From Opitutales bacterium (GTDB lineage Bacteria; Verrucomicrobiota; Verrucomicrobiia; Opitutales; PNEW01): DNA of 32,000 nt. This document shows positions 2,432-32,000 of this stretch, piece after piece; within the stretch, counting starts at the first letter, position 1, and the number at the start of each line of letters is the position of its first letter. The notes beneath the pieces were generated by a model. The model saw only the letters and a list, made by a program, of their open reading frames with translations. It was not told the DNA's origin and did not search any database. The stretch spans positions 1,020,001-1,052,000 of the forward strand of contig CBDCNV010000002.1 in NCBI GenBank assembly GCA_965219535.1, read 5' to 3'. Position numbers and translations under genes: made by a program.

Positions 2432-2466
2432 ATATTAAATAATATTGGACTTATACTTAGGTTGAG

Positions 2467-3696: not shown

Positions 3697-3698
3697 TT

Positions 3699-9782: not shown

Positions 9783-9859
9783 GATCGCTGCTTTGTAATC
9801 CGAGGTTTTAGGTTTTCGTTAAGCCTGAACTTCAATGCTTAATAGAGGAGTGTAGACTC

Positions 9860-11365
9860 TCAAGAGGGATTATGAATAAGGAGCAATTCGACCAATGGTT
9901 CCTTATTTCCCAGGGTGATTGAATCACCGGTTGCTAAATATTGTGTGTTGGCGACAGGTTGTTTGTTGAGGCGTGTGGTGTCGGCATATTCCGTTTCGAT
10001 TTTTAAACCCTCGCGCGTAAAGTAAATGTGGCAGTGTTGTTTGGCAATGGCCTTATTATCTGAATTAATGCGGAGTCCATTTTGGTCGTTATCAATTTCG
10101 GTCCCTATGATAAAATGATCACCACTCAGGGGAACGGAGATTCCTTCATATACGATATGGGTTGGAAGGGGATGGGCTTTCGGGCGTGATTCCTTTGAGT
10201 CGACAGCGGCATCAGCCGGTAGTGCATTCTCCTCAGGATTTGAAACAGGAGTGTCAAATACTGATTCGTCAATGGGTATTTGAGTAAGAACAGGTGTCTG
10301 ATCAAGCGATTCCACGAGTGGGGTATCCACCGCAAAGGTGGCGCAACCTTTCGCCGCTGAAGCAATATCTAAATGAATGAGATTAAAATCCCTCCCTCCC
10401 TTTAGCTTATTTGAAAGACCAGGTACACGAGAGGCACGATCTGTCAGGTAGAGAGAGCAGGGTCCATCTCCAACAATTGAAGATGCTTTGCTTACGACCT
10501 GAACAATGGAATCGTTGACTGTATCGAGATCTCTTGCGAGGGAATCAAGAGTAACAACTATTTGGCGTGGTCGTTTTAGTCCACCCAGTTCGAGAGAACA
10601 TTCAGGTGCATAGCGTAATTCATCGATGAGGCGCCGTATTTGATTATAGAATGCCTGCTCGGTTTTTCCATCGTGGGTAACATCAAAAGCGGTCTGGCTT
10701 AAGAAGCGATTGGCTAGTTTTGGCATTAATTCATTTATAATATGAGCATAGCCCAAATCTGAGAAACGGACGATATGTTGTCTCTCAATTACCTCACCTA
10801 CTCTAATCACAGTTACGACGATAGTATATTGATGAATGTCAAGGTGGAGGGCAGTAAAAGGGCGTGTATCAATTGAAGGGAGATGGGGAATGATTGAAGC
10901 GCAGGCCATATCGACGATCCCGGCTAAAGGGATTTTTAAATCACGCGCCATGCTTAAGATTAACCCGATTTCCAATTCTTCCTCGTCATCCTCAATAGCG
11001 ATGTAATGACCCGGCAGAGCAAAAACAACTTTTTCAGCAGGGAGACCACTCCCATTTAATCGCGACCATAGGTGTTTTAAATGATGGAATGCGAGTTCGG
11101 AAAATAATGGATTCTTTCCTCCTGCAGAAATAATCGAGGGGCGAAGAGAGAGTTGATCCCAACAAGTATCAGTGACAATTCGCGGATGAATTCGTGAGAG
11201 GTTTTCAGCTTCCCGGCCGGCAAGGTAGTCGCTCCCATTAAAATAAATGAAACCCGGACTCGACGGGCCATCCGTTTCAAGTGGGACTAATCGCTCCTGC
11301 TCACCTACACGCGCCGCGGCAAGAAATCCTTCATCACAAAATTCCAGGCCGAGTGTATTAATCAT
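9860..11365 (-). CDS. Degenerate Hsp70/actin-fold (ASKHA-like) protein with a C-terminal FHA-like domain
   Basis: The Hsp70-like order of blocks is kept but the nucleotide motifs are eroded. GLEFCDEG replaces GIDLGTTNS, VVFALPGHY replaces ViTVPAYF, ALHLDIHQYTIVVTV replaces DLGGGTFDV, and LYLTDRASRVPGL replaces vLvGGstRiP. The C-terminal ~90 aa (HFIIGTE...IAKQHCHIYF...TTRLNKQPV...LATGDSITLG) have FHA-like spacing but lack the canonical GR/SxxH/NG residues. Confidence 0.6.
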   Translation of the reverse strand: MINTLGLEFCDEGFLAAARVGEQERLVPLETDGPSSPGFIYFNGSDYLAGREAENLSRIHPRIVTDTCWDQLSLRPSIISAGGKNPLFSELAFHHLKHLWSRLNGSGLPAEKVVFALPGHYIAIEDDEEELEIGLILSMARDLKIPLAGIVDMACASIIPHLPSIDTRPFTALHLDIHQYTIVVTVIRVGEVIERQHIVRFSDLGYAHIINELMPKLANRFLSQTAFDVTHDGKTEQAFYNQIRRLIDELRYAPECSLELGGLKRPRQIVVTLDSLARDLDTVNDSIVQVVSKASSIVGDGPCSLYLTDRASRVPGLSNKLKGGRDFNLIHLDIASAAKGCATFAVDTPLVESLDQTPVLTQIPIDESVFDTPVSNPEENALPADAAVDSKESRPKAHPLPTHIVYEGISVPLSGDHFIIGTEIDNDQNGLRINSDNKAIAKQHCHIYFTREGLKIETEYADTTRLNKQPVANTQYLATGDSITLGNKEPLVELLLIHNPS

Positions 11366-11392
11366 TATCTGAGGGAGAAAAAATTCAGGTTA

Positions 11393-12262
11393 TCAAGTAA
11401 TCGACATCTCGCTTTCCTCCTTAAAAGGGATCTTCATTACAGCGAGGAGTTGATTTCTGCAGTATTCTTCGGTTTCGAGTATGAGACTTTCTTGCCGGGA
11501 CTGCAAAAGGTGAATGAAATACATAAGAATAATACTGAGAAAAAGGGCAATCAACGTAGAGTTAAAAGCGAGACCGAGAGAATCAGTCACGCCTTGGATG
11601 TTGCCCCTTATCGCCTGGTCTGCCTTGGTCAATGCTTCTCCGATACCACGCACGGTACCGATAAATCCGACCGACGGGATCGCCCATGCCACGTAACGGA
11701 CGAGGGATAGCTCAGAATCCAGCCGGTCCGCTTCTGATTCTGATATTTCTCTCACCGCCTGAGAGACATCTTGAATGGAGTGCGAAGATTGAAACCTTCG
11801 AAGGGCGGTAAGCACGACACGGGGTAATAATTTATCTGCGTATTGCGGTATATTGGCGAAACGCGTTTCCACTTCTTTTGAGTGGGCAAGTGCTTCTTCA
11901 GGAATGATCCTTTCCCCCGTTTCTATATCCAATAAATTTTCATTTAAAATCGATTTTTCCTGCCAGACTTGGCGAAGTTTATAGATAACAATCATCATCG
12001 CCCAGACCATTAGGGTGAAACAGACCTGTTGCTCGTAATCTTTAATAATAACAAAAATTGTGCGTTCAGGTACGAAACCGGTATCCGATTGCTGAGCGGC
12101 TTTTAATGTATTGGCTATTTGGATTTTCGCGGCTTGCGCACGAATACCTAATTTGGGTAATTCATAGATAAAACCGATTAAGACGATGGAAATCAAAAGT
12201 CCGGCAAATTGGTAAATATTCTCTCTGGAAAAGAGGCTACTTTTAGAATTATTAGCTGCCAT
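11393..12262 (-). CDS. MotA/TolQ/ExbB-family proton channel (stator A-subunit-like)
   Basis: Four predicted TM helices, with a ~90-aa cytoplasmic insert between TM2 and TM3. The C-terminal signature is WAIPSVGFIGTVRGIGEAL...GLAFNSTLIALFLSIILMYF, matching the ExbB/MotA pattern aPllGLlGTV.Gm...AL.tTa.GL. It is first in a four-gene minus-strand operon. Confidence 0.8.
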   Translation of the reverse strand: MAANNSKSSLFSRENIYQFAGLLISIVLIGFIYELPKLGIRAQAAKIQIANTLKAAQQSDTGFVPERTIFVIIKDYEQQVCFTLMVWAMMIVIYKLRQVWQEKSILNENLLDIETGERIIPEEALAHSKEVETRFANIPQYADKLLPRVVLTALRRFQSSHSIQDVSQAVREISESEADRLDSELSLVRYVAWAIPSVGFIGTVRGIGEALTKADQAIRGNIQGVTDSLGLAFNSTLIALFLSIILMYFIHLLQSRQESLILETEEYCRNQLLAVMKIPFKEESEMSIT

Positions 12263-14855: not shown

Positions 14856-16136
14856 ATGACTACGTCGTTTGAAACTGCGATCTGGGTACTGTGGGGACTT
14901 TGGTTGCTCCAGGGGCTTTTTGGATGGTTTAATGTATTTATGTATCGTATCAGAATGCGATGGCAGGACGAGCGCTTGGCTGCACCTCTCCAAAAACCGC
15001 TGCTACCAGCTGTTTTATTGGCCCCGATGAAAGGGATTCGCCATAATTTCGAACCGTATGTAGGCGAGTTACTCAATCAGGATTATCCGAATTATCACGT
15101 GATCTTCTCAGTAGAATCAACGCGTGATCCCCTTTACAGTAAGCTTCGAGACAGGATCGGATTGAGAGATGATAAATTGATTTGGAGACCTGAAGAAGAA
15201 CCTGCGCCCCAGGGCTCACCTCAAGTGTCACGAGGATTAAAAAGGGTGCAGCTTATAATTGCAGGTCTTTGCGAGACCGGCGCACAAAAGGTGCACAATC
15301 AACTTCAGGCATTGCGAGAGTTGCGCGATGAAGACGCACTGATTGCGGCAAGTGATGCGGATATTCTACCCCCACGGAATTTATTGCGGCAATTGCTTGG
15401 TCCTCTGAACCAGGGCACCCATACGGCTTCAACAGGTTACCGATGGATTATCCCCATGAACCGAAATCTGGGGATGTTAACGGCAAGCGTTGTCAATGGA
15501 TCGGTGGCTACAATGGGTGGCCCCGAATGGTGTAATTTGATGTGGGGTGGGGCGCATGCGTTGACAAGAGAATTCCATGAAGAAATAGATCTCACCGACA
15601 AATTTGTCGGCGCCTTTAATGATGACTTACAGACCGCCTATCATGTGCGCAAAGCTGGAAAAAAAATTGCCTACCTGCGTTCGCTTATGCTGCCCAGTCC
15701 TGAAGATTATAATTGGTCTTCAATGTTTGAATTTAGCTGGAGGCAATATTTTCATGTGCGCATATACGCACCCTGGGCCTGGTGGTCAGGTCTTTTCGTA
15801 ACCGCCCTCTATCTATGCGCAACATTAACCGCATGGAGCGCGATATTTACCGGCTATTTCAAAGCTTTCATCCCTATTGCTTTCGTTTTTGTGCTCAACG
15901 AAATGCGTGCGCATCAGCGCATTGAATTAATGAAAACTTTATTCAGCGGTAAACATTTAGAGGCGTTGAAGCCGACATTTGCCCTCGAACGTTTCGCGAC
16001 TTTTTTCTGGATTTTTGTTCATTTCCTTACCATCTGTCGTTCGGGTATCGGGCAAGTCATTACCTGGTCCGGCATTACTTACCGTGTCACAGGGCGTCAA
16101 AAAACGGAAGTAATTATGAGGAATGAGGGTGTTTAA
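14856..16136 (+). CDS. Membrane glycosyltransferase, GT2/GT21-like (ceramide glucosyltransferase / HpnI-like)
   Basis: N-terminal TM helix, then LLAPMKGIRHNFEPYVGELLNQDYPNYHVIFSVESTRDP (compare GT21 LKPLKGvD.NL...DYP.ye..fcV.d..DP). Also GAQKVHNQL (NPKvnNL-like), ASDADILP and NDDLQ. Several C-terminal TM helices follow. Confidence 0.6.
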   Translation: MTTSFETAIWVLWGLWLLQGLFGWFNVFMYRIRMRWQDERLAAPLQKPLLPAVLLAPMKGIRHNFEPYVGELLNQDYPNYHVIFSVESTRDPLYSKLRDRIGLRDDKLIWRPEEEPAPQGSPQVSRGLKRVQLIIAGLCETGAQKVHNQLQALRELRDEDALIAASDADILPPRNLLRQLLGPLNQGTHTASTGYRWIIPMNRNLGMLTASVVNGSVATMGGPEWCNLMWGGAHALTREFHEEIDLTDKFVGAFNDDLQTAYHVRKAGKKIAYLRSLMLPSPEDYNWSSMFEFSWRQYFHVRIYAPWAWWSGLFVTALYLCATLTAWSAIFTGYFKAFIPIAFVFVLNEMRAHQRIELMKTLFSGKHLEALKPTFALERFATFFWIFVHFLTICRSGIGQVITWSGITYRVTGRQKTEVIMRNEGV

Positions 16137-16149
16137 ACCGATCCTCAAT

Positions 16150-19100
16150 TCAGTGGCTGTTAGTATAATCGCGAAAATCCACGCGGAAAAGTACCGCGTA
16201 AAGCAATGGAACAATTCCAAGGACGAGGAGGGTGGCAAATAATAATCCAAAGATAATCGCCACCGACATCGGTTGAAAAGTCGGATTACCTCTAAAGTAG
16301 AGGGGAAGAATCCCTCCAATGGTCGTGACAGTTGTTAGAAGAATAGGGCGTAATCTGTTTAATGACGCTTCAACTATACTTTCTTGAGTAGAGAGACCCT
16401 TAATATCCAGGTTTATGCGAATGCGGTCGATTAGAATTATCGCGTTATTAACGACGATTCCAGTGAGAGAAACGACGCCGACAAGAGTCATAAATCCGAA
16501 AGGCTGTTTGGTGACAAGCAATCCGACAACTACCCCGATGAGTCCCATAGGAACGGCGCAGACAATAATAAAAGTTCTACGGAAGGATCGCGTTTGTCGA
16601 ATAAGCAGGAGGACAATCAGAAAGGCAGTCCAGGGAAGCTTATTTATAATAGACTGGTTAGCCTTGCTGGATTCCTCACTTTCGCCGCTGATCAAAACAC
16701 TGTAATCACTCCCCCAATTATTTTTTTGCTCTGCAATCCATTGCTTTAATTGAGTATCCACATCTTTAGCTTTGACCCCCTTCTGGATGTCGGCCCGCAC
16801 GGTTACCGTGCGCTGGAAATTTCTCCTCACGAAAGACGCTGTTTCACGTACTTCCTGGATTTCAGCAATATCTTTGAGGAGCACAGTCGTCCCACGTTTG
16901 ATTATTGAATGGATATTCAATGATTCAATTTTTTCAATCTCATTGTCCCTATCGACAGTGGCATGAACATTAATGGGGATGATGATATTTCCCTCGCGCA
17001 TCGTAGTGGCAGGGTACCCAGTTAGCAGCGACTGGAGAGATATCGCCACATCGGCATGAGTAATACTGGCGAGACTGGCTTTCGTTTCATCGATTACGAC
17101 TCGGTATTTTTTTACCGGTGGCCCCCAATCATCATGGATGTTGTAGGTGCCAACTATAGAGCGTAGTTTGTTTTTAACTTCATCGACGATGCGGAAAATG
17201 CCATCAACGTCTTCACCTGAAACGCGGGCTTTGATCGGGTATCCAACGGAAGGACCTGATTCTAGGGGACGCGCGCGAATTTGCGCCTCAGGAAAATTCT
17301 CGGCGCAATAGTTCTCAATAGAATGAATCATTTCGGGAATGATTTTAACCGAGGTGAGATTAAAAAGGAAATAAGCGTATTCAGGATTATATTCAACCGT
17401 TCGGTGATTAAGAATAAAGCGTGGAGCGTTCCGACCGACAAAAGTCGCCCAATTTGTGATACCTTCTCCTCCATTTTTTTCGGCTCGGAGATTTGCCTCT
17501 ACATAGGCGTCCACCGCGTCCACCGTTTTCTCTGTATGCTCAATCACCGTGCCCGCGGAAAATTCTATTTCCAGGGTAAATAAAGGGCGATCTGATGGCG
17601 GAAAGAAAATTTTAGGGACAAAGCGAAAACAATATAACGAACCCAAAAATAAAAGCAGAGTGAGGAAAAGAATTAGAAAGGGGCGTGGCAGCATCCACAG
17701 GAGAAGGCGATGATATAAGCGGTAACCTGAGTGGTCTAATAAGTTTTTTTCCTTCTGCGTTTTAACTTTGAATAGATAGACAGAAAGCAATGGGGTAAGG
17801 GTGAAGGCAAAAAAAGTGGAAGAGAGAAGAGTTATCGCAACGATGGTGAAGAGTGGAGAAACATATTCACCGGCAGTAGATTGGGCGAGATAGATGGGGA
17901 GAAACCCGGATAAAGTAGTCAAGGCCGCGGTAATAAGAGGGCCATGTAATTCATAAGTAGATTCCTCAGCTGCGGAGACGGGAGTTTCGCCGCGCTCACG
18001 TAAGGTAAGGATGCGCTCGGATATGACAATGTGAGTGTCGACGATGATACCAAAGACGAGAATAAAGGCGGCAAGCGCGACGAGGTTTATATTTATGCCA
18101 AGACCCAGCATGATGACGAGTGCAGTAAGAAAAGTTAGCGGCATCATACTGGCGACTATAGACCCGGTGCGCAGCCCGAGGGTAATCATCAGGATTAACA
18201 TTACGATGATGAGACTTTGCACAAGATTACCAAAAAAGGCGTTCACGCGATTCGAGACACGCCCCGGTTCAAATGCAATGAGTTCTAATTCTACACCTGC
18301 GGGCACTTTATCCTTTAATGTGGTGAGCAGAGATTTAACTTCACGACCCATTTTTTCGATATTGCCACCTTTTCTTATGGACACCGCCAGACCGAGGGCG
18401 TTATTTCCCGAAGATTTCATAATGCTGTCCGGTGGTTGCTGAACCTGGCGTTTAACTTCTACCAAATCCCCTAAATAGTAGGACTCGTCATCATCGGGGA
18501 GGGAAACCTCCAGGTTTTCTATATCTTCTACCGAGGATAACTCACCTGCCAATTCGACCGCATAGCGCGAATTCCCCTCCCGGATACTCCCTCCCGGGGC
18601 GATAACATTTTGCGCTTCAAGATATTTGATTAAATGGTAAGGGGAAATTCCCGCATCAGCCATATCCGAATCAAAAAAATTAACCATGACACTTTCACTT
18701 CGATCACCCAAAGTGATGACTTTGGAAACATCGTCGAGGCGGAGTAACTCATCATGAACAGTCTCGGATACTTCTCTTAATTTAGTATAGGAAGAGTTTC
18801 CAGAGACGGTAACGATGGTGCCGAATACTTCACCGTACTCATCATTAAGGACCGGTACACCAACACCGTCTGGTAAATCACCTTTGACTCGATCTATCTT
18901 GCGGCGCAACCGATTCCATATAGGACGAATATCCTGGTAGCGGTCTTGAATTTTAACTAAAATCACCGAAGCATTTTTGCGCGATATGCAATGAATGGTT
19001 TCTACCTCCGGGACTTCGCGTACCGCCTCTTCAATTTTTCGTGTAACGAGACTTTCCACTCGTTGAGCAGAAGCGCCCAAGTATTTCGTAACAATTAACG

Positions 19101-19233
19101 AATAGCGAAATACAACGGGAGGGTCTTCGGTTCGCGGCAGTTGCCAAAAAGCAATTATTCCGCCAATAAATAAAAAAAGAGAAATCAACAGCGTAAATCG
19201 CGGTTCTCTCAGGGCAAAATCAGTAAGCTTCAT
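16150..19233 (-). CDS. RND-superfamily efflux permease (AcrB/MmpL-like), with no adjacent adaptor or outer-membrane factor gene
   Basis: It is 1027 aa with the typical RND layout: TM1, a large periplasmic loop, a TM cluster, a second loop and a second TM cluster. Conserved stretches include VSIRKGGN, FGIIVDTHIVISE, TTLSGFLPI and GIVVNNAIILID. Confidence 0.9.
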   Translation of the reverse strand: MKLTDFALREPRFTLLISLFLFIGGIIAFWQLPRTEDPPVVFRYSLIVTKYLGASAQRVESLVTRKIEEAVREVPEVETIHCISRKNASVILVKIQDRYQDIRPIWNRLRRKIDRVKGDLPDGVGVPVLNDEYGEVFGTIVTVSGNSSYTKLREVSETVHDELLRLDDVSKVITLGDRSESVMVNFFDSDMADAGISPYHLIKYLEAQNVIAPGGSIREGNSRYAVELAGELSSVEDIENLEVSLPDDDESYYLGDLVEVKRQVQQPPDSIMKSSGNNALGLAVSIRKGGNIEKMGREVKSLLTTLKDKVPAGVELELIAFEPGRVSNRVNAFFGNLVQSLIIVMLILMITLGLRTGSIVASMMPLTFLTALVIMLGLGININLVALAAFILVFGIIVDTHIVISERILTLRERGETPVSAAEESTYELHGPLITAALTTLSGFLPIYLAQSTAGEYVSPLFTIVAITLLSSTFFAFTLTPLLSVYLFKVKTQKEKNLLDHSGYRLYHRLLLWMLPRPFLILFLTLLLFLGSLYCFRFVPKIFFPPSDRPLFTLEIEFSAGTVIEHTEKTVDAVDAYVEANLRAEKNGGEGITNWATFVGRNAPRFILNHRTVEYNPEYAYFLFNLTSVKIIPEMIHSIENYCAENFPEAQIRARPLESGPSVGYPIKARVSGEDVDGIFRIVDEVKNKLRSIVGTYNIHDDWGPPVKKYRVVIDETKASLASITHADVAISLQSLLTGYPATTMREGNIIIPINVHATVDRDNEIEKIESLNIHSIIKRGTTVLLKDIAEIQEVRETASFVRRNFQRTVTVRADIQKGVKAKDVDTQLKQWIAEQKNNWGSDYSVLISGESEESSKANQSIINKLPWTAFLIVLLLIRQTRSFRRTFIIVCAVPMGLIGVVVGLLVTKQPFGFMTLVGVVSLTGIVVNNAIILIDRIRINLDIKGLSTQESIVEASLNRLRPILLTTVTTIGGILPLYFRGNPTFQPMSVAIIFGLLFATLLVLGIVPLLYAVLFRVDFRDYTNSH

Positions 19234-20005
19234 ATATTCTAGTTCTCATGGGGAAAATAACGATAATTGAAAGGATTTCTTTTGAAAGATTTCCAATCGA
19301 CGGTCAATCACGACGTTAAATCCTTATAACCTGATTTAATGTCAAAATTATATCATTTTAAGGGGTTTTCCTAACTTTCCTTTGCGTGTTGACTGAAAGG
19401 GCATTTTTTTTCAAAAATAAGCTTTAATAGTATAAAGCGGTATATCTTAATTAATAAAAGGGAAAAATGTTCTTTAAAAAAGAACAATGATTCTTATTGA
19501 ATAATTATAGTTTAGCCACATAAATCATGATCATCAGCAATTATGTTCTTCTTAAACGTGCAACTATTTTTTTAATAGACAGAATGAATAACGATTGTTG
19601 GTATCTACTAAACCTGCCAAGTGTGGCATGAATTATCAGAGGATTGCCGAAGGCATTCTTTTGATGGCTGTAAAGGCATTTTAGATTCCAGTCTTCTATA
19701 ATCGTCAATATAATCTTGAAAGATACGCGAACATATACGCCCAGATGATCGTATTTGATCACCCGATAAATATCTTTCCAAGAACCCAAAACTTGGATAA
19801 TTATACACCGAAAAATGCAGCAAAAGGTGGCCGTGATAAGCGATCATTTGATGCATGATAAGCAGCGTTATTTTTTTAGATTTTATCTAGACAGGAGAGG
19901 GTTCATTATCCATTAAGATAGTTGAATAATCAGTATGAAAAGCTTGTATAGAAAGTATGCCCTTAAAAAGGGCGTGCCTCATATTTTATTTTTGGAGTCA
20001 GCCGA

Positions 20006-23000
20006 ATGATTAACCAAGGGAAATGCCCTATCGCGATTATTGGAATCGGTTGCAGATTTCCTGGTGGAGCAACTGATTCTGCTTCATTCTGGAAGTTTTT
20101 ACGCGACGGCGGCAACGCAATCGTCGAAGTCCCTGAAGATCGTTGGAATCTTGATCAATATTATGACCCAAATCCCAATTTAGCGGGCAAAATGATCACT
20201 CGCTGGGGAGGATTCCTGAATCCTATTGACCAGTTCGACGCTAAATTTTTTGGCATTTCCCCCCGTGAAGCCTTGAGGATGGATCCTCAACAGCGATGGC
20301 TGCTGGAAGTTGCCTGGGAAGCTATGGAAGACGGAGGTCAATCGCCCGATCGGATGGCGGGGACACGGACGGGAGTATTCGTTGGCATATCGAGTAATGA
20401 TTATGCGAATATTCAGATGAAAAGTCCTAATGATGTTGATGTGCATACCAACAGTGGGAGCACGCTTAGTATTGCATCAGGAAGGATTTCCTACCTCTTT
20501 GATTTAAAAGGCCCGAGCCTCTCGGTCGACACCGCCTGTTCATCGGCACTGGTTGCTGTAAATCTTGCCTGTAATAGTATCTGGGATGGACAGTGTGACA
20601 CCGCCCTTGCGGGTGGAGTCAATGCACTGATTACGCCCGATTCAACGATCGGATTCAGTAAAGCTTCCATGCTCTCACCTGATGGCAAGTGTTATGCCTT
20701 TGATGACCGGGCAAATGGTTATGTTCGAGGAGAGGGAGCAGGAATCATTGTTCTCAAACCGCTCGATCAAGCGCTCGAGGATAAAGATCCAATTTATTCG
20801 GTAATTCGCGCAAGTGTCGTTAATCAAGATGGTCGCACAAGCGCGATGACCGTACCCGGTCAAATTTCCCAGGAAGCCATGCTTTATGAGGCTTATAAAC
20901 AAGCGGGAATTTCACCGCAAAAAGTTTGCTACATGGAAGCGCACGGTACGGGAACACCGGTTGGCGATCCAATTGAAGTTCTGGCTTTAGGTAATGTTTT
21001 AGCTGAAGGAAGAAAAGCAGGTGAGGAGTGCGTGATCGGGTCGGTTAAAACGAATATTGGCCATTTAGAATCTGCTTCTGGCATCGCTGGATTAATCAAA
21101 GCTGCTTTAATCCTGAAATATGGGGAGATTCCTCCAAATCTGAACTTTGAAAATCCTAATCCAAATATACCTTTTGAAAAACTTCGATTACGGGTTCCGA
21201 CAAAGTTGGAACCGTTGAATGGCAATGGATCGGGTCCAGCTGTAGTCGCCGTTAATTCTTTTGGCTTTGGAGGGACAAACGCCCACGTGGTGTTAGAAGA
21301 AGCACCTGCGGCAGCGAAAAGGCGTAAAAAAATTAAAAAAGGTAATTCCTCTGAGCCCTACCTTATCCCTCTCTCGGGAAGAGGACAACAGTCATTAAAA
21401 AAATATGCTGAATCTCTGGTAGAATTGATTTCAGGTCAATCGAATGGCAAGGAAGTGTCGCTTCCAGATTTAGCGCACACTGCGAGTATCGGCAAGGGCC
21501 ATCATGACCATCGCCTGGCGCTGGTTGCTGTTTCGGAAAATGAAGTCGTAGAAAAGCTCAACGACTATCTGGCAGAAACTAAGGTCAAGGGCCTTGTCAC
21601 TGGAAGAGCTAAAACAGAAAATAATAGCGAAATTGTATTTATATTTACCGGTCAGGGTTCGCAATGGTGGGCAATGGGCCGGGAGCTATTGAAAAATGAT
21701 CCGATCTTTAGGAAAAAAGTTGAAAAGTGTGACCGACTTTTAAGTAAATATGCTTCCTGGTCTCTAATTAAAGAATTATCACGGGATGAGGCGAGCTCTA
21801 GAATAGACGATACAGCAATCGCTCAACCGGCCATTTTCGCCTTACAAATAGCTTTAGCTGATTTATGGAAGGCGAGAGGGGTGACACCGACTGCTGTGAT
21901 AGGGCATAGTGTAGGTGAAGTTGCTGCCGCTTACTGTGCGGGTATTTACACGCTCAATGATGCGATTAGAATTATTTATCACCGCAGTCGTTTACAAGGG
22001 ACGACTCGTGGTTCGGGCCGTATGGTGGCGGTTGCTATTTCGTCCGAAAAGGCCAAGGAATTAATTCAAGGTTACGAAAATCAAATTGCGATAACCGCTA
22101 TTAACAGTCCCGGGTTGGTAACCTTAGCAGGGGAAACTGAAATTTTAGAAACTTTAATCGAGCCGCTTGAAAAAGAACAGGTATTCGTTCGTTGGTTGAA
22201 TGTAGACTATGCTTTCCATACCCACAAAATGGATCCTATTAAGGACGAATTAATTCAAGTCCTAAAAGGGATCAAGACGCGCACCGCGAAAATCCCATTT
22301 TATTCTACAGTTACTGGTGATGTTCTCGACGGTAAGAAACTGAATGCCGGTTATTGGTGGCGCAATGTCAGGGAAGCCGTTCTTTTTGGTCCCGCGATTG
22401 AAAAAATAATGACTAAGGATCATGAGCTTTTTCTCGAGCTTGGGCCCCATCCGTCTCATTCCAGTTCCGTTATGGAGTGCCTGGCACATATTGGTAAAAA
22501 AGGAATGGTCCTGCCATCCTTGCGGCGCAAAGAATCGGATCACCAGATCATACTCGAATCTCTGGCTGCTCTATATACCCAAGGCTATCCCATAAATTTA
22601 GATGCGTTATACAGCAAGGTAGGTAACCTTATTCATCTACCTTCTTATCCCTGGGAGCACGAACGATTCTGGTTAGAATCGGCCATTTCCGAGGACCACC
22701 GATTAGGTTCAATTATTCACCCACTGCTCGGTAAAAAATTGAATACCCCAAGTCCAACTTGGGAATGTGAATTGGACCCTCTAGCCCTGCCTTATCTGGC
22801 AGATCACCGACTTCATGATTCCATGGTTTTTCCCGGCTCTGCCTATGTGGAGACCGCGCTTGCGGCGCTTAATGAGCTCTATCCAAATGAATCTTATGTT
22901 ATTGAGGATGTAAAAATCCTTAAGGGTCTGTTTATGTCAGAAGAAGACCTCATTACTCTTCAATTTACCTGTGATGAATCTGATGATTCATTTAAAATTT

Positions 23001-26000
23001 ATAGTTCAACTTACACCTCTACCGGAGAATGGGAAGTTCACGCCGAAGGTCGGTTTCAGAAGCTCTCGCTGCGCGAACCCGGCAAGTTGGACCTTGAACA
23101 TTTAAAATCCACTTTGGAAGACGAGATAGATCACGCCAAAATTTATTCAGATTTCGATGATGTAGGTTATCAGTTTGGTCCCTGTTTTAAAGAAGTACAA
23201 AAAATATGGAGAAAAGACGGCGAATCCTTAGCCGAGATACAAGTTCCAGATGCGATTCTAGAAAATATAGATAAATATTATTTCCAACCTGCGGTCCTGG
23301 ATGCCTGCTTTCAAGGGGGCAAGGAAACAAGATTTAAGGATGAAAAGAGAAAAGCGCGTGATAATTTTTTCATGCCCATTGCTCTCAAACGCTGTCGTTT
23401 TTATAAAAGTCCAGGTACGCATCTCTGGTGCCACACGTTATTAATAAATGACGAAGAAGACCGGGTTGAATACGACCTTGAGATTACTGATGACGATGGC
23501 TCAATCATCGCGGAGATCAAAGGTTTTCGTGTTCAACGTGTAGATCAGTCCGAGTCAAAAACAGAGGATGATTTTGAAAACTGCCTCCTCATGTTTAAGT
23601 GGGCGCTCTCAGGATTACCGGGAGCACGTCTTGACCCAGTCGAACTCCTGAGTCCCACCCAGATCGTAGAAAAATTAGTTCCTGAAATTACCCCCAACTA
23701 TGAAAAATATCAACTAGAAGGCTATGTTGAGGACTTCATTCCTCGAATGGAAGATCTGAGCTTACATTTTGTTCTCACGGCCTTGATCAAGCTGGGTTGG
23801 AGCCCGGAAAAGGGTGATCTGGTATCGAAAGAAGGTTTAATTGAACAGTTGGGTATAAAGGAGGAGCATTTTCGTTTATTTAATCATTCTCTTTTTGACG
23901 TTTTGATAAATGAAAAGGTGGTTCGGGCGACACCAAAAGGAGAGTGGGAGTTTTCAAAATTTCCAGAGAAACAGAATTTAGATAAACTTTGTAAAGATCT
24001 AAAATCAGATTTCCCCCACCTTTCAGCGGAAATGGCATTACTGATCGATTGTGGTTATGTCTTAGCCGAAGTCCTTTCTGGAAAGACCGATCCCCTTGAT
24101 GTTGTTTTTCCAGCTGGCGATCAGGGAAAACTTGAAAAGTTTTATAAGTTTTCTTCAGATTTTCAGGCCTATAACAGTATGTTTCAGACGGCTATTTCCT
24201 CGATCGCTAAAAATTTTTCGGGAAGCAGGCCACTTCGCATTTTGGAAATCGGAAGTGGAACGGGTTCATTGACTGAAAGTTTGCTTCAAGTATTACCGGC
24301 TGATCGTACTGAATATTTCTTTACCGACATTTCGCCATTGTTCACGTCAACAGCTAAGGAAAAATTTAAGGAATATGATTTTGTTGAGTACCAGCTTCTC
24401 GATATTGAAAAATCACCGTCTGAACAGAATTTTGACCTTCATTCTTATGATTTAGTATTAGCCACTAATGTTCTGCACGCCACTGCTGATTTAAAACAAA
24501 CTTTACGTCACATCAATCAACTGATGACCGAAGAGGGCATATTGATGTTTCTCGAGGTCACCTCACGTCGTCTTTTTCTTGATCTGGTTTTTGGTCTGCT
24601 ACCCGGTTGGTGGAGATATACCGATACTGATTTAAGGTCTACTTCTGCATTGCTGTTGCGCCCGGAGTGGGAAAATCTGCTCAATGAAGTAGAATTTCGT
24701 GACGTAAAATCTTTTGTCAATACACATCTACAAGACAATTCCGTTCAGACATTATTAATGGCTAATGCTTCTGAACGATTGCTGGAGGAAGAAATGGTTG
24801 AATCCAGCGATGCAGTTGCGAATGAAGATAAATTCTGGTTAATTTTCGCTGATCAAAACGGTCACGCTGAGACTCTGTCTAATCATTTGAAAGAGAAGGG
24901 CAGAAATTGTGTGATGATTCACGAAGGTGAAAGCTTTGTTCAGGAAAATGAAAACAGCTATAAGATTAATCCTGAGCAGTTGGAAGACATGGAGAAGCTA
25001 TTTGCTTCCCTCAACTTTGAGCGGAATGTTATGCAGGGCGTAATTCATATGTGGAGCCTAGATCATCCCACCGTTGATATGACTACACCTGAAAACCTCG
25101 AAGAGGCTCAGCAATCAGGTTGTCTGAATGTATTAAATTTGATTCAAACGCTTGTTAAATACGAACCATCACCGGCACCACGTGTTTGGTTGATCACCCA
25201 GGGTGCTCAGTCGGTAAGGGAAAACGAATCAATCGAGCGCATTGTTTCGGCTCCGTTAATGGGTCTCGCTCGCGTGGCAAACAATGAGCATAATGATTAT
25301 CATTGGACAGTAATAGATCTGGAAACATCAACTACTCCGGATGACCTGGGATTTTTGGTCGACGAAGTCTTTTCTTCAGACGACGAAATTGAAATCGCAT
25401 ACCGCGGTGAGGAGCGTTACGTCAATCGTCTGGAAAAGGTTTTGACCGATGAACTTCCCGCGCGTACGAAGGATGCGGTGAGACACGACGGGGTACTTCC
25501 GTACCGTCTGGAAATACCAACCCCTGGCATTTTAAATAATCTGCAATTGAATGAGACACAGCGCAGATCTCCAGATTCGAAGGAAATCGAAATTATAGTT
25601 GAGGCGGTTGGATTGAATTTCCGTGACGTGATGAAAGTCATCGGTATGTATCCCGGTAATAGCAGGGATTTGAAGTGGCTGGGTGACGAATGTTCAGGGA
25701 CCATTGTTACGGTTGGTAAAGATGTCACTGAATATCAGGTTGGAGATGATGTAGTTGGTATGGTACCCTATTGCTGCCGCTCTTATGCGACGGTTAATCA
25801 TGCATTAGTTTTTCCCAAACCGTCCGATCATACTTTCGAGCAAGCGGCAACATTACCGATTGTATTCCTCACTGCCCATTACACATTGAATTATCTGGCC
25901 CATCTCCAAAAAGGAGAGAAAGTACTTATTCATGCGGGCGCAGGCGGTGTCGGTCAGGCTGCGATACAAATGGCTAAGCATTTGGGAGCTGAAATTTTTG

Positions 26001-29000
26001 CCACCGCGGGATCACCTGAAAAACGTGAATTCCTTAGAGGCCAGGGAATACAGCATGTGATGGATTCGAGGTCATTGGATTTTGCCGATGAAATCCTGGA
26101 AATTACCGAGGGTAAAGGGGTGGACGTCGTTTTAAATCAGTTAGCGGGCGACTTTATCACCAAAAGTCTATCTGTCCTCGCACCCTATGGAAGATTTTTA
26201 GAAATCGGTAAAGTAGATATTTATCAAAATTCGAAAATGGGGCTCGAGCCTTTTAAAAATAACTTGTCGTATTTTGCGGTTGATCTCTCGAAGCATATTG
26301 AAGAGCGACCAGAGTTTATCACTACGATGTTGCGTGAAATATCGGAGATGTTTGAAGAAAAGAAACTAAAGCCGCTGCCGATCAAATCTTTTCCCATCAC
26401 CGAAGCAGTCGACGCATTTCGTTATTTTGCTCAAGCAAAACACATTGGCAAAAATGTACTCACTTTAGCGGCGGATTCTATCCCTGTTGGTTTGCCTTCC
26501 AATCAGGAGACACTATTCCGCGCCGATGGGACATACCTTATTACGGGTGGACTTGGCGGATTTGGTCTGGAAGTAGCCAAGTGGATGATAAAATTTGGTG
26601 CGAAGAATTTATTACTTATGGGCCGTTCGGGAGCGTCGACTGAAGTAGCGGTTGAAGCGCTACAGCATATGCGTAACGACGGAGCCCGAATTGAAGTAGC
26701 TAAAGCCGATGTCGTCAGCAGTGATGATGTTAAACGCGTGCTCAGTAAGATCGATCAAGAAATGCCACCATTAAAAGGTGTGATCCATGCCGCCATGGTT
26801 CTGGATGATGGTTTCCTCGTTCAAATTGACACTGAAAAATTTAGAAAGGTTCTGCGGCCAAAGATGGTTGGTGCCTGGCAATTACATCAACAAACGAAAC
26901 ATTTGCCTTTGGACTTGTTCGTTCTTTTTTCATCGGCTTCTTCACTGATAGGTCCCAATGGCCAGGGAAACTACGCCTCGGCAAATTTCTTTCTCGATGC
27001 TTTAGCGCATTATAGAAACGCCCAAGGTCTTCATGCATTAACGATTAACTGGGGTGCATTGTCCGAGGCCGGCTATGTCGCTCGAAATGAAAACGTAGCT
27101 AAATATCTCGATCTCCTTGGATTGGAAAGTTTCACCCCGCAAGAAGCACTCAGCATTTTGGCTAATATAATACCAAAAAATCCGGTCCAGTTGGGTGCAT
27201 CACGTATTAACTGGATGGCTATCTCTAAGCTGAATCCATCGATGGTAAATTCGCCATTGTTTTCGAAGGTCATTAATCATGATGCCCTCATAGATAGTAC
27301 CGGTGCCCATGCTCATTCATTCCGCCCACAACTACTAGCGGCTCCGTCTGAAGATCGTCATAAGATAGTAGAGGATTATATAAGTGAACAGGTTGCCCAG
27401 GTTTTCGGTACCACGGCGGATAAAATTGATCGTACCACCCCACTAACGACAATCGGGCTCGATTCCTTAATGGCTATAGAATTGATGAATCGCCTGGAAT
27501 CCAATTTGGGGATTAGTTTGCCCATGGGTAAATTTCTCCAGGGTCCGAACATTTCACAACTGGCCGCACCCGTCCTCGAATTACTACTCAAATTTGATCC
27601 CAGTTCGGAGGCATCGAATATATCTCGAGTTGTCACTGCAGGGGAAGAATTGATGGCCTTTCCCTTATCCTATGGGCAACGCGCGCTCTGGTTTTTAAAT
27701 CGCCTCGCCCCAAGTAGTTCAGCTTATAATCTTGTCTTTAGTTCGTTAATCACCCCTTACGTCGACATCGATATTATGAAAGAGGCCTTTGCCAGTCTCT
27801 TTCATGCACATCCCATGCTCGACATCGTCTTCTCTACGCAAGACGGAAAGCAGATACAAACATTGCAAAAAGGGCGGAGTATCGATTTTAGAGAACACGA
27901 TACCACGCATCTAAGTGATGGTGAACTTAAAGAACTGCTCGTAGAACATGCGCATAAGCCGTTTGATTTACAAACGGGTCCCGTCTGTCGCTTGGAGCTT
28001 TTCCGCACGGCCAAGGGGTCTCATGTAGCGCAACTTGCGATGCACCATATTGTCTCTGATGCATGGTCGGTGGTGCTTATTCTTAACCATTTGATGGAAA
28101 CTTATTTTGCCCTGAAAGCTGGGCGAAAACCTGATCTCCAGATACCTGACCATAGATATTCAGATTACGTACGCTGGCAGCAGGATATGCTGAAAAGCCC
28201 GGAAGGTGAACGTTTGGCCAAATACTGGGAGGAATACTTGGAGGAAGCTCCAATGACCCTTGATCTTCCTACCGATCACCCGCGTCCACCAGTGCAGACA
28301 TTCAATGGTGCAACCTTAGGTTTCAAACTTGATACAGATCTAACAAATGAAGTGCTGTCTTTGGCGGAAAATAAAAATGTCACCTTATATACCACTCTTT
28401 TGTCGGCATTTAAAATTTTAATGCATCGCTATTGTGACCAGGAGGAGATTCTAGTGGGGAGCCCACTACACGGGCGCATTAACCAGGAGTTCCATCACCT
28501 CGTCGGCTACTTTGTCAATCCCGTGGCATTACGCAGTAGCATAGGTGACGATCCTTCATTTTCCGATTACTTGGATCGCACCAATCAAACGGTAATTGGA
28601 GCGTTAGAAAATCAGAATTATCCCTTCCCGCTACTCGTTGATCGTTTAAAGCTAAAACGCGACCCCAGTCGTTCACCAATCTTTCAAGTCAGCTTTGCGA
28701 TGGAACGCATTCCAGGTTTTGATGAACAGGGCATTGCCGTATTTCTCATCGGTCAAGGTGGTCATCAATTCAAAGCTGAGGATATGAATATCGAGTCAAT
28801 GGATCTAAATTTACGCATGTCGCAATTTGAGATTACACTCGTGGTGGAAGAAGCAGGGGGAAATATTTACGGATGCTGGCAATATAATCGTAATCTCTTC
28901 AAAGAGGAAACGATTGATCGTCTGAACGAATTTTATAAACAACTGCTCAAAGAAATTATTTCCCAACCCAATAAAAGTATTTCAGAGCTCAATATCCTTT

Positions 29001-32000
29001 CCAAAAAAGAAGAAAAGCAGCTACTCGTTGAATGGAACGCAACTACTGCTGATTACCCCGTCGATGCCTGCCTGCATCATCTCATCACTGAACAGGCGAC
29101 AAAATGCCCTCAAGCCACGGCTATTGTATCCGGTGATAATTCTCTGACTTATGAAGAATTGGAGAGAAAATCTAACGGCTTGGCCATGGTCTTGCATGAA
29201 AAGGGTGTTGGACCGGATTCACCGGTTGGCTTATATCATGATCGGTCTTTAAATATGGTTGTTGGATTGCTGGGCATTCTTAAAGCTGGCGGTTGTTATG
29301 TGCCTTTAGATCCAGATTTTCCACCCTACAGGTTGGAGCTGATGCTCAAGAATGCTCAACCTTCCGTTGTCGTAACACAGAGTGAACTGGCGGACACATT
29401 ACCAGCTGGTAATTGGGAATCTGTTTTTATTGAAGAAATAGATGAAGCGGAATCTGCACCTCATGTCGATGGGCTAACCCCTGAGTCACTCGCTTATATC
29501 ATTTATACCTCTGGGTCTACAGGTAAACCGAAGGGTGTGGAAATTCCGCATCGCGCTTTAGTGAATTTCCTCAGCTCGATGCAGTCTGAACCTGGTATTA
29601 AGCAGGAGGATAAGCTCTTAGCCGTAACGACGCTCTCTTTTGACATCTCAGGATTGGAAATATACCTGCCGCTCATATCAGGGGCGCAAATTATTCTGGC
29701 CTCACGAATGGAAGCGATGGATGGTCGCCGATTAGCCGATCTCATTGAAAGCTCAAATCCAACCGTGATGCAAGCGACACCAGCTGCTTGGAAGATGTTA
29801 CTGGATTCTGGTTGGGTGGGAAAAGAAAGTTTAAAAGTTCTATGTGGGGGAGAAGCCCTGCAACCAGAATTAGCCGATCAACTTTGCATGCATTGTGGAG
29901 AGGTTTGGAATCTTTATGGTCCAACTGAAACGACGATCTGGTCTACGGTAGCTAAAGTTGAAAAAAGAAGTGATGTAATTATGATTGGTCATCCGATCGC
30001 TAATACTAAAATTTACATATTAGATGAAAATCTGAAACCACTTCCTGCAGGATTTACCGGTCATCTCTACATTGGTGGTGACGGTCTAGCCCGAGGCTAC
30101 CATCATCAACCGGAGCTTACGGATGAGTCCTTTATCGAGCTGGCTATTTCCAGGGGTAAAACTGAACGTTTATATAACACTGGAGACTTAGCGCGCTATA
30201 CGATTAACGGATCCATTGAATGTATAGGACGCCGTGATTCTCAAATTAAATTACATGGTTACCGGATCGAGTTGGGCGAAATCGAGACCGTGCTTAATGC
30301 CCATCCAGTAGTAAGTAAAGCGGTGTTGCTTTTGCGTGATGATATGACAGGTGGTCCCAGTCTTGCTGCTTATATACAACCGACTGAAAATCACGATAAC
30401 ATCATTCCAGAATTGCGTACCTACCTTGGTGAGCGTCTGCCCCAGTACATGCAACCAGCGGCTTACATGGTCGTAGACGAGTTCCCCTATACACCTAACA
30501 AGAAGATAGATCGCAAGGCGCTTCCAATCCCATCCCTAAAGCGTTCCGATTTAGGGTCAGAATATGTCGCACCCCAGACGCCGACGGAGAAAATACTCTG
30601 TGATATTCTAAACCGGGCGTTTAAGAATGATAAGATTGGCATTCACGACAACTTTTTTGAATTAGGTGGCGATTCTCTCATGGCGGTTGAAATATTATCC
30701 AGTATTACCGCTGCCTTTAACCGTGAATTACCGATCGAAGTATTCCTTCGCAATCCCACAGTGGAAAGCCTGGGGCAGTTTTATGATCTTATTCCCGAAA
30801 GTATCGATGATCATTCGAACGGGTCTAACGGCAGTTCAAGTTTAGGTAAAGCTTCGGACTTAATTAAGAACAGCTATCTGGACATAGAACAGGTCAATGG
30901 GAAGAATGGCGATCGCACCGACCTTCCTCAGGTGGACGCCGTTGCGCTGGCTTATATACCCGATGCTTTCCTTCCGCTCACCGGTCTATCGAAAGATGAA
31001 ATATCACGACAATGGTTTCAACATCAGCCCTTTGTCAGCAATTACTATGAGACACCATTTGGAAGAATAGCCATCGTCATGCTTCCGCGGCTGGGTGCAG
31101 AGCTATACAAGGACCAGGAGCCACTTAGCGACAATATTTTAAGTTCGTTAAAACTAGCAGCTAAAATGGGTGCGAGTACTGTTTCGCTCACTGGGCTCAT
31201 TCCATCGGCTACGGATTATGGACGAAGTATTAAGCACTGGATCAATGGTCATGATAATTTACCGGCGATAACAACGGGTCATGCGACAACAACGGCAACA
31301 ATCGTGAAGACGATTACGGGAATGCTTGAGCAAACCGATCGCGACTTTGCTGATGAAAAAGTAGCCATTGTTGGTCTAGGGTCTATCGGGTATGCAACCT
31401 TGAGGCTCATGCTTGAAGTTATGCCTCATCCGCTTGAGCTTATCCTTTGTGATCTTTATCAGAAATCGGATAGTTTAGAGGAAATTAGAAATGAACTTGT
31501 CGAAAAACTTGGCTTTAATGGATCCATTCGTGTCGTAACCACTCGCGGGCGATTACCCGATGCCATTTATGACGCTTCATTTGTACTCGGCGCGAGCAAT
31601 GTGCCAGGGATCTTAGATATTAAACGGATAAGACCGGGGACTCTCCTCGTCGATGATTCGTTCCCTCCATGTTTCCGTTTATCCGATGCCATTAGGCGCA
31701 TCGAAGAACAACAGGATATTCTTTTTACCACAGGCGGGTTACTTAGGTGTTCGAAGGAAATCAAAGAGACGATTTATTTACCGGATGGAGCGGGTGAATT
31801 ATTTGCCAGCCTGGGTGTTGATAAAGTTCAGCGACTGGCAGGGCGCGATCCACGTGAAATTACTGGTTGTATCCTTTCCAGCTTATTAACCGGGCACGGT
31901 CCAGACATTCAAACCACTATCGGTCCAGTCGAAATCGAAGATTCGCTCGCCCACTATAAACTCCTCGAGAAACTAGAGCTCGAGGCGGCTCGACCGCAGT
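20006..32000 (+). CDS. Hybrid type I PKS-NRPS megasynthase, 3'-truncated by the window edge (about 3998 aa visible): KS-AT-DH-cMT-ER-KR-ACP-C-A-PCP-AAR-like
   Basis: I translated it by hand from the ATG at 20006. An in-frame TAA lies at 19964-19966 upstream, and I saw no stop to nt 31999. The ORF is missing from the supplied track. All antisense track ORFs between 20180 and 31764 are short shadows. Domain motifs are listed in the sub-features. Confidence 0.92.
   Translation, partial: [3998 protein letters not shown]
20021..21300 (+). other. PKS ketosynthase (KS) domain
   Basis: [25 protein letters not shown] (active Cys178, codon 20537-20539); [37 protein letters not shown]. Confidence 0.92.
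21630..22560 (+). other. PKS acyltransferase (AT) domain, malonyl-type motifs
   Basis: [31 protein letters not shown] (Ser635, codon 21908-21910); [10 protein letters not shown]. The xAFH form is associated with malonyl-CoA selectivity, as opposed to YASH for methylmalonyl. Confidence 0.85.
22709..23550 (+). other. PKS dehydratase (DH) domain
   Basis: [28 protein letters not shown] (HxxxGxxxxP with G replaced by D; His934, codon 22805-22807); [15 protein letters not shown] (DxxxQ). Confidence 0.85.
23990..24760 (+). other. SAM-dependent C-methyltransferase (cMT) domain
   Basis: Motif I is [12 protein letters not shown] (nt 24239-24274). Also present: [13 protein letters not shown] and EGILMFLE. 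The position between DH and ER is as in FAS-like/highly reducing PKSs. Confidence 0.85.
25498..26470 (+). other. PKS enoylreductase (ER) domain
   Basis: [47 protein letters not shown] (NADPH site); AKHIGKNVL. Confidence 0.88.
26527..27090 (+). other. PKS ketoreductase (KR) catalytic domain, B-type (LDD motif)
   Basis: [30 protein letters not shown] (LDD); [34 protein letters not shown] (Tyr2323, codon 26972-26974). The region about 24800-25440 probably forms the KR structural subdomain. Confidence 0.85.
27356..27595 (+). other. Acyl carrier protein (ACP) domain
   Basis: [18 protein letters not shown] (phosphopantetheinyl Ser2487, codon 27464-27466). Confidence 0.88.
27645..28990 (+). other. 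NRPS condensation (C) domain
   Basis: C1 is [13 protein letters not shown]. C3 is [10 protein letters not shown] (codons from 28043). Also [30 protein letters not shown] and [13 protein letters not shown]. Confidence 0.88.
29030..30530 (+). other. NRPS adenylation (A) domain with a glycine specificity code
   Basis: Motifs A1-A10 are all present: [107 protein letters not shown]. The Stachelhaus positions, read by aligning to GrsA-PheA from memory, give D-I-L-Q-L-G-L-I-W-K. Confidence 0.85.
30563..30795 (+). other. Peptidyl carrier protein (PCP/T) domain
   Basis: [19 protein letters not shown] (Ser3557, codon 30674-30676). Confidence 0.88.
30940..32000 (+). other. C-terminal Rossmann domain resembling acyl-ACP reductase (AAR), a putative non-canonical reductive release domain; may continue past the window
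   Basis: [34 protein letters not shown] (GxGxxG, nt 31361-31390); [45 protein letters not shown] (Cys3915, codon 31748-31750). There is no TE GxSxG and no SDR-type R-domain TGxTGFLG motif. Confidence 0.55.

Follow-up and report, generated by a model that had tools for sequence, protein, structure and literature searches.

A stand-alone PKS-NRPS gene with a C-terminal TAD-family domain and a linked sulfotransferase gene in marine Opitutales

What do the last 12 kb of a genomic stretch encode when the list of its open reading frames (ORFs) leaves them almost empty? The question is raised by 32,000 nucleotides (hereafter, the window) of contig CBDCNV010000002.1 (positions 1,020,001 to 1,052,000, forward strand), from a marine Opitutales bacterium (Verrucomicrobiota). 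Between 19.9 and 32 kb, that list holds only short minus-strand ORFs (a single one, of 103 amino acids, among those of at least 100), as an initial annotation of the window had remarked. The same annotation placed here an uninterrupted plus-strand ORF for a hybrid of polyketide synthase (PKS) and nonribosomal peptide synthetase (NRPS).

These 12 kb are one real, almost complete PKS-NRPS gene with a product of 4,026 residues (the megasynthase), which by sequence homology ends in a member of the terminal amidation domain (TAD) family of NAD-binding domains. The gene is an ordinary orphan biosynthetic gene of a known kind, like many others from metagenomes; its noteworthy parts are the TAD, a clade-conserved sulfotransferase, and a product that is probably a glycine-capped, methyl-branched lipid. 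Literature searches on Opitutales with PKS and sulfotransferase, and on later TAD work, returned nothing specific and no paper describing the cluster.

One PKS-NRPS gene and its domains

Translation from the ATG at 20006 (frame with 20006 mod 3 = 2) to 31999 on the plus strand gave 11,994 nt, or 3,998 sense codons, with zero stops, confirming the ORF as it had been proposed. At the per-codon stop probability of 0.0596 set by the base composition of the window, a run of this length would arise by chance with a probability near 1e-107. None of the six frames has a longer open stretch (the runner-up has 1,031 codons). The frame is open already from 19967, ATG 20006 is the first ATG within it, and a GGAG ribosome-binding site lies 9 nt 5′ of that ATG. 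The gap in the ORF list arises because ORFs that run off an end go unlisted, which agrees with the suggestion that this one had been dropped for want of a stop inside the window.

The 3′ end lies beyond the window, again as first supposed, with the stop codon 84 nt past its edge. Two ENA contigs match the window, ERZ25067264:ctg834844 at 100% identity and ERZ25072670:ctg256118 at 99.996%, and on each of them the gene call has 4,026 amino acids, so only 28 codons are missing. A Logan assembly also holds an identical copy of the gene. Read from a 96%-identical fragment (P0001), the 28 C-terminal residues follow ...ARPQ as CEGFFIDSEIIEKFKERDASSTTHAEIV. A PigE-like aminotransferase after the reductase-like tail, to be expected from an NCBIfam match to PigE (see below), is ruled out, since the protein ends 28 amino acids past the window.

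Domains were called with Pfam (every match well beyond its cut-off, with E-values between 1e-11 and 1e-106) and NCBIfam, and the architecture is KS-AT-DH-cMT-(ψKR)-ER-KR-ACP-C-A-PCP-TAD on a single stand-alone type I PKS-NRPS polypeptide. All ten domains from KS to PCP in the initial annotation were recovered in the order given there with their catalytic motifs intact; that list had overlooked the C-terminal TAD (residues about 3640 to 3998), and the PCP is not the last domain. The KS Cys-His-His triad, the AT GHSxG motif, the DSL carrier serine, and a C-A-PCP module after the ACP, all features of type I PKS-NRPS enzymes, are present, and the compound made would probably be a polyketide-amino acid hybrid.

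All domains lie on the plus strand. The KS with the start of the KS-AT linker (20027 to 21514, residues 8 to 503; PF00109, PF02801, and PF16197) gives ketoacyl-synt matches at residues 8 to 256 and 264 to 382. It carries the triad Cys178, His313, and His353 and the motifs DTACSS, EAHGTGT, and NIGHLE, and it opens the protein at residue 8, where neither a docking nor a loading region precedes it. The AT (21635 to 22558, residues 544 to 851; Acyl_transf_1, PF00698, E 9e-75) has the motifs GHSVGE and YAFH, both kept in 11 orthologues; [HTVY]AFH is the established AT motif for malonyl-CoA. The DH (22718 to 23554, residues 905 to 1183; PKS_DH_N/PS-DH, PF21089/PF14765) has the catalytic residues His934 and Asp1099xxxGln, in motifs that the orthologues keep. 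The C-methyltransferase, cMT (24197 to 24625, residues about 1398 to 1540; PF08242, PF08241, PF13489, and weakly PF18558), has its Methyltransf_12 match at residues 1413 to 1513, a weakly matching N-terminal lid from about residue 1233, and a conserved S-adenosylmethionine (SAM) motif, LEIGSGTG.

A structural (pseudo) KR subdomain (24839 to 25324, residues 1612 to 1773; Beta-ketacyl_N, PF21394, E 2e-13) precedes the ER (25580 to 26461, residues 1859 to 2152; ADH_N/ADH_zinc_N, PF08240, PF00107, and PF13602), whose NADPH motif HAGAGGVG is intact and conserved in orthologues. The KR (26528 to 27064, residues 2175 to 2353; PF08659, E 1e-66) shows TGGLGGFG, a B-type LDD motif, and catalytic Tyr2323. 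The ACP (27350 to 27580, residues 2449 to 2525; PF23297/PF00550) has its phosphopantetheine Ser2487 in GLDSL, a motif invariant among orthologues.

The NRPS module comprises a condensation domain (27659 to 29026, residues 2552 to 3007; PF00668, E 5e-106; motif HHIVSD), an adenylation domain (29087 to 30505, residues 3028 to 3500; PF00501/PF13193 and TIGR01733, 421 bits against a cut-off of 317), in which cores A3 to A10 are present, and a PCP (30593 to 30781, residues 3530 to 3592; PF00550) with Ser3557 in GGDSL. The specificity code of the adenylation domain reads DILQLGLIWK, and clade-wide DILQ[L/F]GL[I/V]WK. The domain appears glycine-like because this clade-conserved code agrees with the published glycine codes DILQLGMIWK (PMC12283262) and DILQLGVI (PMC5466765). 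The literal string DILQLGLIWK was absent from the literature searched, in which the shorter DILQLG gave two glycine assignments. LgrA module 2 (glycine), the top solved relative of the adenylation domain, was also considered; its pocket residues differ, and no confirmation of the code was possible from it.

Residues 3593 to 3998, which span the linker and the TAD-family domain (30923 to 31999, residues about 3640 to 3998, with 28 more past the window), matched no Pfam family. A search of solved structures aligned residues 48 to 403 of this tail with residues 22 to 374 of the CarI TAD crystal structures (PDB 9e4x/9e4s; 44% identity, E 2e-87, 296 bits, full length). Weak matches were obtained to the PigE N-terminal region (NCBIfam NF053554, E 1e-13, 50.4 bits against a cut-off of 850; PDB 4ppm, E 4e-4) and to cyanobacterial acyl-ACP reductase (AAR; TIGR04058, E 1e-3, 18.3 bits against a cut-off of 449.7). 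The TAD has been described as an acyl-ACP-reductase-like NAD-binding domain with an invariant Cys by the nicotinamide (CarI Cys2238), a TTG motif, a GxGxxG motif, an Asp that excludes NADP(H), and a DDSG-cisPro loop, and an Asp beside the nicotinamide has been proposed to favor NAD+ over NADH (Rankin et al., bioRxiv 10.1101/2024.10.28.620694).

In the window, the motifs read TTG (3756 to 3758), GLGSIG (3790 to 3795), Asp3816 (in LCDLY), DDSFP (3883 to 3887), and Cys3955 (in ITGC). The Cys, TTG, GLGSIG, and Asp3816 align with their CarI counterparts and are all kept in 11 orthologues; Asp3816 aligns with CarI Asp2102, the residue that excludes NADP(H), and is predicted to act alike. Five of the six TAD features of sequence and position are found, the remaining one being the DDSGP loop. 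At the Gly position of this loop, other homologues can have D, A, or H, and the window keeps both Asp residues and the Pro. The domain follows a PCP that ends at residue 3592 and closes the protein. TADs are rare (a search of 1.84 billion protein clusters at E ≤ 1e-30 gave 478 representatives), and nearly all multidomain representatives carry the TAD at the extreme C-terminus.

Conservation and neighboring genes

Among GTDB species representatives, supplemented with ENA contigs, a colinear AT-DH-cMT-ER-KR-ACP-C-A-PCP-TAD gene was found in 13 Opitutales/Ca. Moanabacter species (L005 to L017) and on two ENA contigs (L004 and L087), with domain identities to the window from 38% to 98%. Each catalytic motif is kept in the 11 uninterrupted orthologues, and the megasynthase gene is therefore under purifying selection. 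The same species is represented by the closed chromosome of an Opitutales metagenome-assembled genome (MAG; OY829953.1, locus L005), which matches at 97.7% nucleotide identity without gaps, and a Tara Oceans fragment of 96% identity (P0121) points to the open ocean as its habitat. A 144-residue Minf_1886 family protein (TIGR04138; window 4628 to 5062, plus strand), of a conserved hypothetical family restricted to Planctomycetes and Verrucomicrobia, agrees with the taxonomic placement.

The orthologous gene is split into three to four ORFs, with the domains still colinear, on the metagenome contigs L004 and L087 and in the draft genome L006; these splits are probably frameshift errors of low-coverage long-read assemblies and not real gene fission. 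A further copy (L088, 10001 to 16073), on a contig of 3× coverage, is heavily fragmented and has a sulfatase gene directly upstream.

Outside the Opitutales, the same logic of a highly reducing (HR) PKS, NRPS, and TAD occurs in a Planctomycetaceae MAG (L082) that lacks a cMT, in L086, where no cMT was detected, and in a Myxococcota MAG (L052), where no C domain was detected; Gemmataceae have a PKS-ACP-TAD gene lacking the NRPS module. The architecture is therefore not unique to the Opitutales clade; the linkage to a sulfotransferase is.

Several related loci have other layouts. In L085 (10001 to 21767), a related PKS with a 68%-identical KS stops after ACP-C and lacks both A and PCP domains. 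A separate SDR-type reductase (NAD_binding_4) comes next, and the flanks contain glycosyltransferases, MacAB-type transporter genes, and an OEP gene; the locus has the look of another lipid or glycolipid cluster that uses this PKS scaffold. L089 (10001 to 21407) holds a paralogous megasynthase without cMT and TAD, followed by an Asp/Arg hydroxylase. An Acidimicrobiia MAG (L072) has two TAD-encoding regions 4.8 kb apart (10001 to 11047 and about 14866 to 15900), each after an NRPS module.

The downstream flank was read from L005, the GTDB representative of the same species. There, a sulfotransferase gene starts about 125 nt past the megasynthase stop, in keeping with the earlier expectation of tailoring genes outside the window, and is followed by genes for an acetyl-CoA synthetase, a DAO-type oxidoreductase, and TrpRS. 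The sulfotransferase gene is directly downstream in 12 of the 13 Opitutales representatives, and also in L004 and L087, and no homologue was found at any of 67 non-Opitutales TAD loci. Clustering of flanking ORFs returned only the megasynthase (14/14) and the sulfotransferase (13/14) as nearly universal, the other flanks varying. The protein is a Sulfotransfer_3 family member (PF13469) of about 340 amino acids with an RSGTT motif for the loop that binds 3′-phosphoadenosine 5′-phosphosulfate (PAPS). At E ≤ 0.01, its relatives of known structure are limited to 2zq5 and 2z6v, both deposited as uncharacterized proteins, which we take to be mycobacterial sulfotransferases.

No other PKS or NRPS gene and no loading module was found within 20 kb upstream or 10 kb downstream of the megasynthase gene. 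Radical-SAM/UPF0004 and SNF transporter genes, which recur downstream at 8 to 9 loci of more distant lineages, were rejected as cluster members; we read their recurrence as chromosomal synteny, because their distance is variable and they are absent from the lineage of the window.

Divergent from the megasynthase gene, a lone RND (AcrB-family) permease is encoded at 16150 to 19233 on the minus strand (Pfam ACR_tran, E 6e-144), with no adjacent membrane-fusion or outer-membrane partner gene. In L087, a 54%-identical RND gene stands in the same divergent position beside a 60 to 76%-identical orthologous megasynthase, and the outer flanks differ; no RND gene was seen beside the fragmented L088 copy. 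The case for this permease as product exporter is suggestive, and we regard it as a tentative part of the pathway. Between the two genes lies an intergenic region of 772 bp (19234 to 20005, 35% GC), which may have a regulatory role. Within it, some 29 nt short of the start codon of the megasynthase, is a terminator-like hairpin (19955 to 19977; 10-bp stem, T-rich tail), which may be an attenuator or due to chance. No Rfam family matched in the window, and no riboswitch is therefore assigned to the long leader; a scan for the sigma-70 promoter consensus gave fewer matches than shuffled controls.

The genes further upstream in the window are of housekeeping or envelope type (GT21-like, NUDIX, lipoproteins, a MotA/ExbB operon, M16 peptidase, dnaX), with no link to the megasynthase seen. 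The GT21-like glycosyltransferase (14856 to 16136) was tried as a cluster member and rejected, being only 27% identical to the L085 GT21 and having no homologue in other Opitutales loci. On the minus strand at 7726 to 12262, a MotA/ExbB-like gene is followed by three ORFs of 501, 354, and 331 amino acids that match no Pfam or NCBIfam family save a weak FHA-like Yop-YscD_cpl match in the first; this looks like an uncharacterized envelope or motor-associated operon. On the plus strand at 1094 to 4532, genes for a cupin-MDR dehydrogenase fusion (445 amino acids), a UPF0261 protein, and a PEP-hydrolase-like protein stand in a row.

Proposed product and its release

What, then, might the enzyme make? 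We consider it quite probable that this is a stand-alone PKS-NRPS-TAD enzyme of marine Opitutales whose methyl-branched acyl-glycine product is sulfated. The likeliest product would be a saturated acyl-glycine derivative with methyl branches that leaves the enzyme as an amide, or perhaps by reduction, before it is sulfated. By the usual PKS/NRPS rules, YAFH denotes malonyl-CoA, a cMT denotes an α-methyl group, and an LDD-type KR with DH and ER denotes full reduction. The AT would thus load malonyl units onto a fully reducing module resembling MAS (mycocerosic acid synthase) and fatty acid synthase, the cMT would add a SAM-derived α-methyl group, and the B-type KR, DH, and ER would fully reduce the β carbon to give a saturated, methyl-branched acyl-ACP. 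The module probably either iterates or lengthens a fatty acyl primer supplied by primary metabolism, because there is one module, no loading or docking region, and no second PKS gene nearby.

The C domain would then N-acylate glycine held on the PCP, and the TAD would take the acyl-glycyl chain onto Cys3955 next to bound NAD and release the product. The carmabin, vatiamide, and hectoramide pathways, the three TAD pathways with known products, end in primary amides (bioRxiv 10.1101/2024.10.28.620694), and by analogy the released compound would most likely be an N-acyl-glycinamide. Amidation by the TAD is a hypothesis, and we give primary amide release here slightly less than an even chance. Finally, the co-conserved PAPS-type sulfotransferase would sulfate the product, and the divergent RND permease may export the resulting amphiphile.

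Several points weigh against this proposal. If reduction is complete, an N-acyl-glycinamide has no evident hydroxyl that could be O-sulfated, and therefore at least one step is incomplete as drawn (the extent of reduction per cycle, the release chemistry, or the sulfation site); some cycles must leave a hydroxyl, or N-sulfation must occur, or reductive release must yield an alcohol after further reduction. The residues of the adenylation code were read by hand from the A4, A5, and A10 anchors. The TAD loop has Phe in place of CarI Gly2172, both in the window and in all 11 Opitutales orthologues, and the link between the RND permease and the megasynthase recurs in just one further lineage (L087). 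The TAD reaction itself has never been reconstituted (no release was seen under any condition tried, whichever cofactor or nitrogen donor was supplied, and where the nitrogen comes from has yet to be established), and thioester reduction is the activity of the nearest biochemically characterized relatives of the TAD, AAR and the N-terminal domain of PigE (bioRxiv 10.1101/2024.10.28.620694).

This last point leads to the strongest alternative, namely that the TAD reduces the acyl-glycyl thioester with NAD(P)H to an N-acyl-aminoacetaldehyde and, after further reduction, an N-acylethanolamine, whose hydroxyl would be the sulfotransferase acceptor that the amide model lacks. The fold family contains proven thioester reductases, the TAD of the window matches PigE and AAR weakly, and PigE makes an aldehyde from a thioester (PMC8341465); the TAD authors themselves weigh a route of reduction followed by reoxidation (bioRxiv 10.1101/2024.10.28.620694). 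However, the domain is far nearer the CarI TAD (E 2e-87) than AAR or PigE, it keeps both the NADPH-excluding Asp and the nicotinamide-adjacent Asp proposed to favor NAD+, and the three TAD pathways with known products yield amides and not aldehydes or alcohols. AAR-type enzymes, moreover, carry out a two-electron reduction only, so that this route calls for an extra reductase; the neighborhood has no conserved one. We consider reductive release unlikely.

Far less probable still is a sacrificial role for glycine, in which the TAD would oxidize the Cα-N bond with NAD+ and hydrolysis would free the primary amide of the polyketide acid, as an NAD counterpart of the myxothiazol monooxygenase route. 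The near-identical code DILQLGMIWK does occur in glycine modules used with MOX domains for sacrificial amide formation (PMC12283262), and the TAD binds NAD(H), with the Asp beside the nicotinamide proposed to favor NAD+ (bioRxiv 10.1101/2024.10.28.620694). The mechanism is nonetheless unfit for the TAD family, because carmabin, vatiamide, and hectoramide retain and amidate their last amino acid, which is not glycine.

The idea of a decaying or non-functional relic, or of a chimera made in assembly, as the splits in L004, L006, and L087 and the fragmented L088 copy (3× coverage) might suggest, is effectively refuted by the 3,998 stop-free codons of the window copy, by its identity in two independent ENA assemblies and the Logan assembly, by its gap-free 97.7% match to a closed MAG chromosome, and by the retention of all catalytic motifs in orthologues down to about 45% identity, the splits themselves sitting in low-coverage long-read assemblies and resembling frameshift errors.

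No fewer than a dozen uncultured marine species of the Opitutales, an abundant but poorly studied marine group, have kept the gene and a dedicated sulfotransferase. This points to a sulfated lipid or lipopeptide that is typical of the lineage and serves in the envelope or in its ecology. A bolder extension, which we think improbable, is that megasynthase, sulfotransferase, and RND permease form a clade-wide Opitutales pathway for a new class of sulfated, methyl-branched lipo-glycine amphiphile, perhaps not a sporadic antibiotic but a lipid of the membrane or surface. Its maker would be an iterative, fungal-like bacterial HR-PKS-NRPS, with TAD and sulfotransferase cooperating in undescribed chemistry (such as sulfation of the nitrogen of the nascent primary amide, or of a terminus that has been reduced).

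Comparison with known systems

Among solved structures, the PKS half scores best against MAS (PDB 9d2z, 5bp1, and 5bp4; 1,143 bits), which shares the KS-AT-DH-ER-KR-ACP order and a KS that starts at about residue 7 without a loading or docking region. Residues 7 to 1205 align with MAS 6 to 1201, and residues 1712 to 2357 align with 426 to 1070 of the modifying-region construct 5bp4. In NCBIfam, Pks2 ranks first, yet at 1,386 bits against an equivalog cut-off of 2,400. The AT motif is YAFH (malonyl-type) and not YASH, and methyl branches would come from the embedded cMT, whereas there they come from methylmalonyl-CoA, so that the defining feature of that group is absent. Unlike MAS, the protein continues past its PKS half into an NRPS module and a TAD, and the neighboring transporter is of the AcrB family, not MmpL. 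The pairing of an RND-superfamily permease with a sulfotransferase recalls, by analogy, the logic of the mycobacterial sulfolipid locus.

In size and domain order (KS-AT-DH-cMT-(ER)-KR-ACP-C-A-T-release), the enzyme nearly equals the fungal HR-PKS-NRPS hybrids of the PsoA/TenS kind (PsoA, 4,007 amino acids, PDB 9x29; LovB-type, 7cpx). PsoA and LovB were both among the relatives recovered from solved structures. The ER is typically inactive in fungal PKS-NRPS hybrids, whereas in this bacterial gene its NADPH motif is intact, and the release domain is a TAD by homology, not an SDR-type reductase or a Dieckmann cyclase; no match to PF07993 (SDR-type reductase) was found by Pfam in the megasynthase tail.

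AAR and the PigE N-terminal domain share a distant fold or family with the TAD and have a catalytic Cys beside a nicotinamide cofactor, with marginal sequence similarity. AAR is a free-standing NADPH enzyme that does not follow a PCP, whereas the TAD of the window carries an Asp predicted to exclude NADP(H). PigE fuses its domain to an aminotransferase and likewise does not place it after a PCP.

Close parallels are the terminal modules of CarI, VatR, and HcaD (carmabin, vatiamide, and hectoramide) from Moorena cyanobacteria, in which C-A-PCP is followed by a two-lobed NAD-binding domain of about 360 to 400 amino acids. The gene described here differs in fusing the NRPS-TAD unit to a fully reducing PKS module, in a predicted activation of glycine, and in its origin in Verrucomicrobiota; its clade has a DDSFP loop where CarI has DDSGP, and it is linked to a sulfotransferase, none being reported for the cyanobacterial systems (bioRxiv 10.1101/2024.10.28.620694). 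Nor does it belong to the Verrucomicrobiota-rich "cluster 3" of the same study, in which Tyr replaces the second Asp, a variant shown by P0003 and P0011 but not by the window. The predicted acyl-glycyl thioester substrate on a single polypeptide is much simpler than the cyanobacterial lipopeptides for which TAD reconstitution failed, and if the clade-wide pathway outlined above is real, this one-module, glycine-loaded system would be the most tractable so far for showing TAD chemistry.

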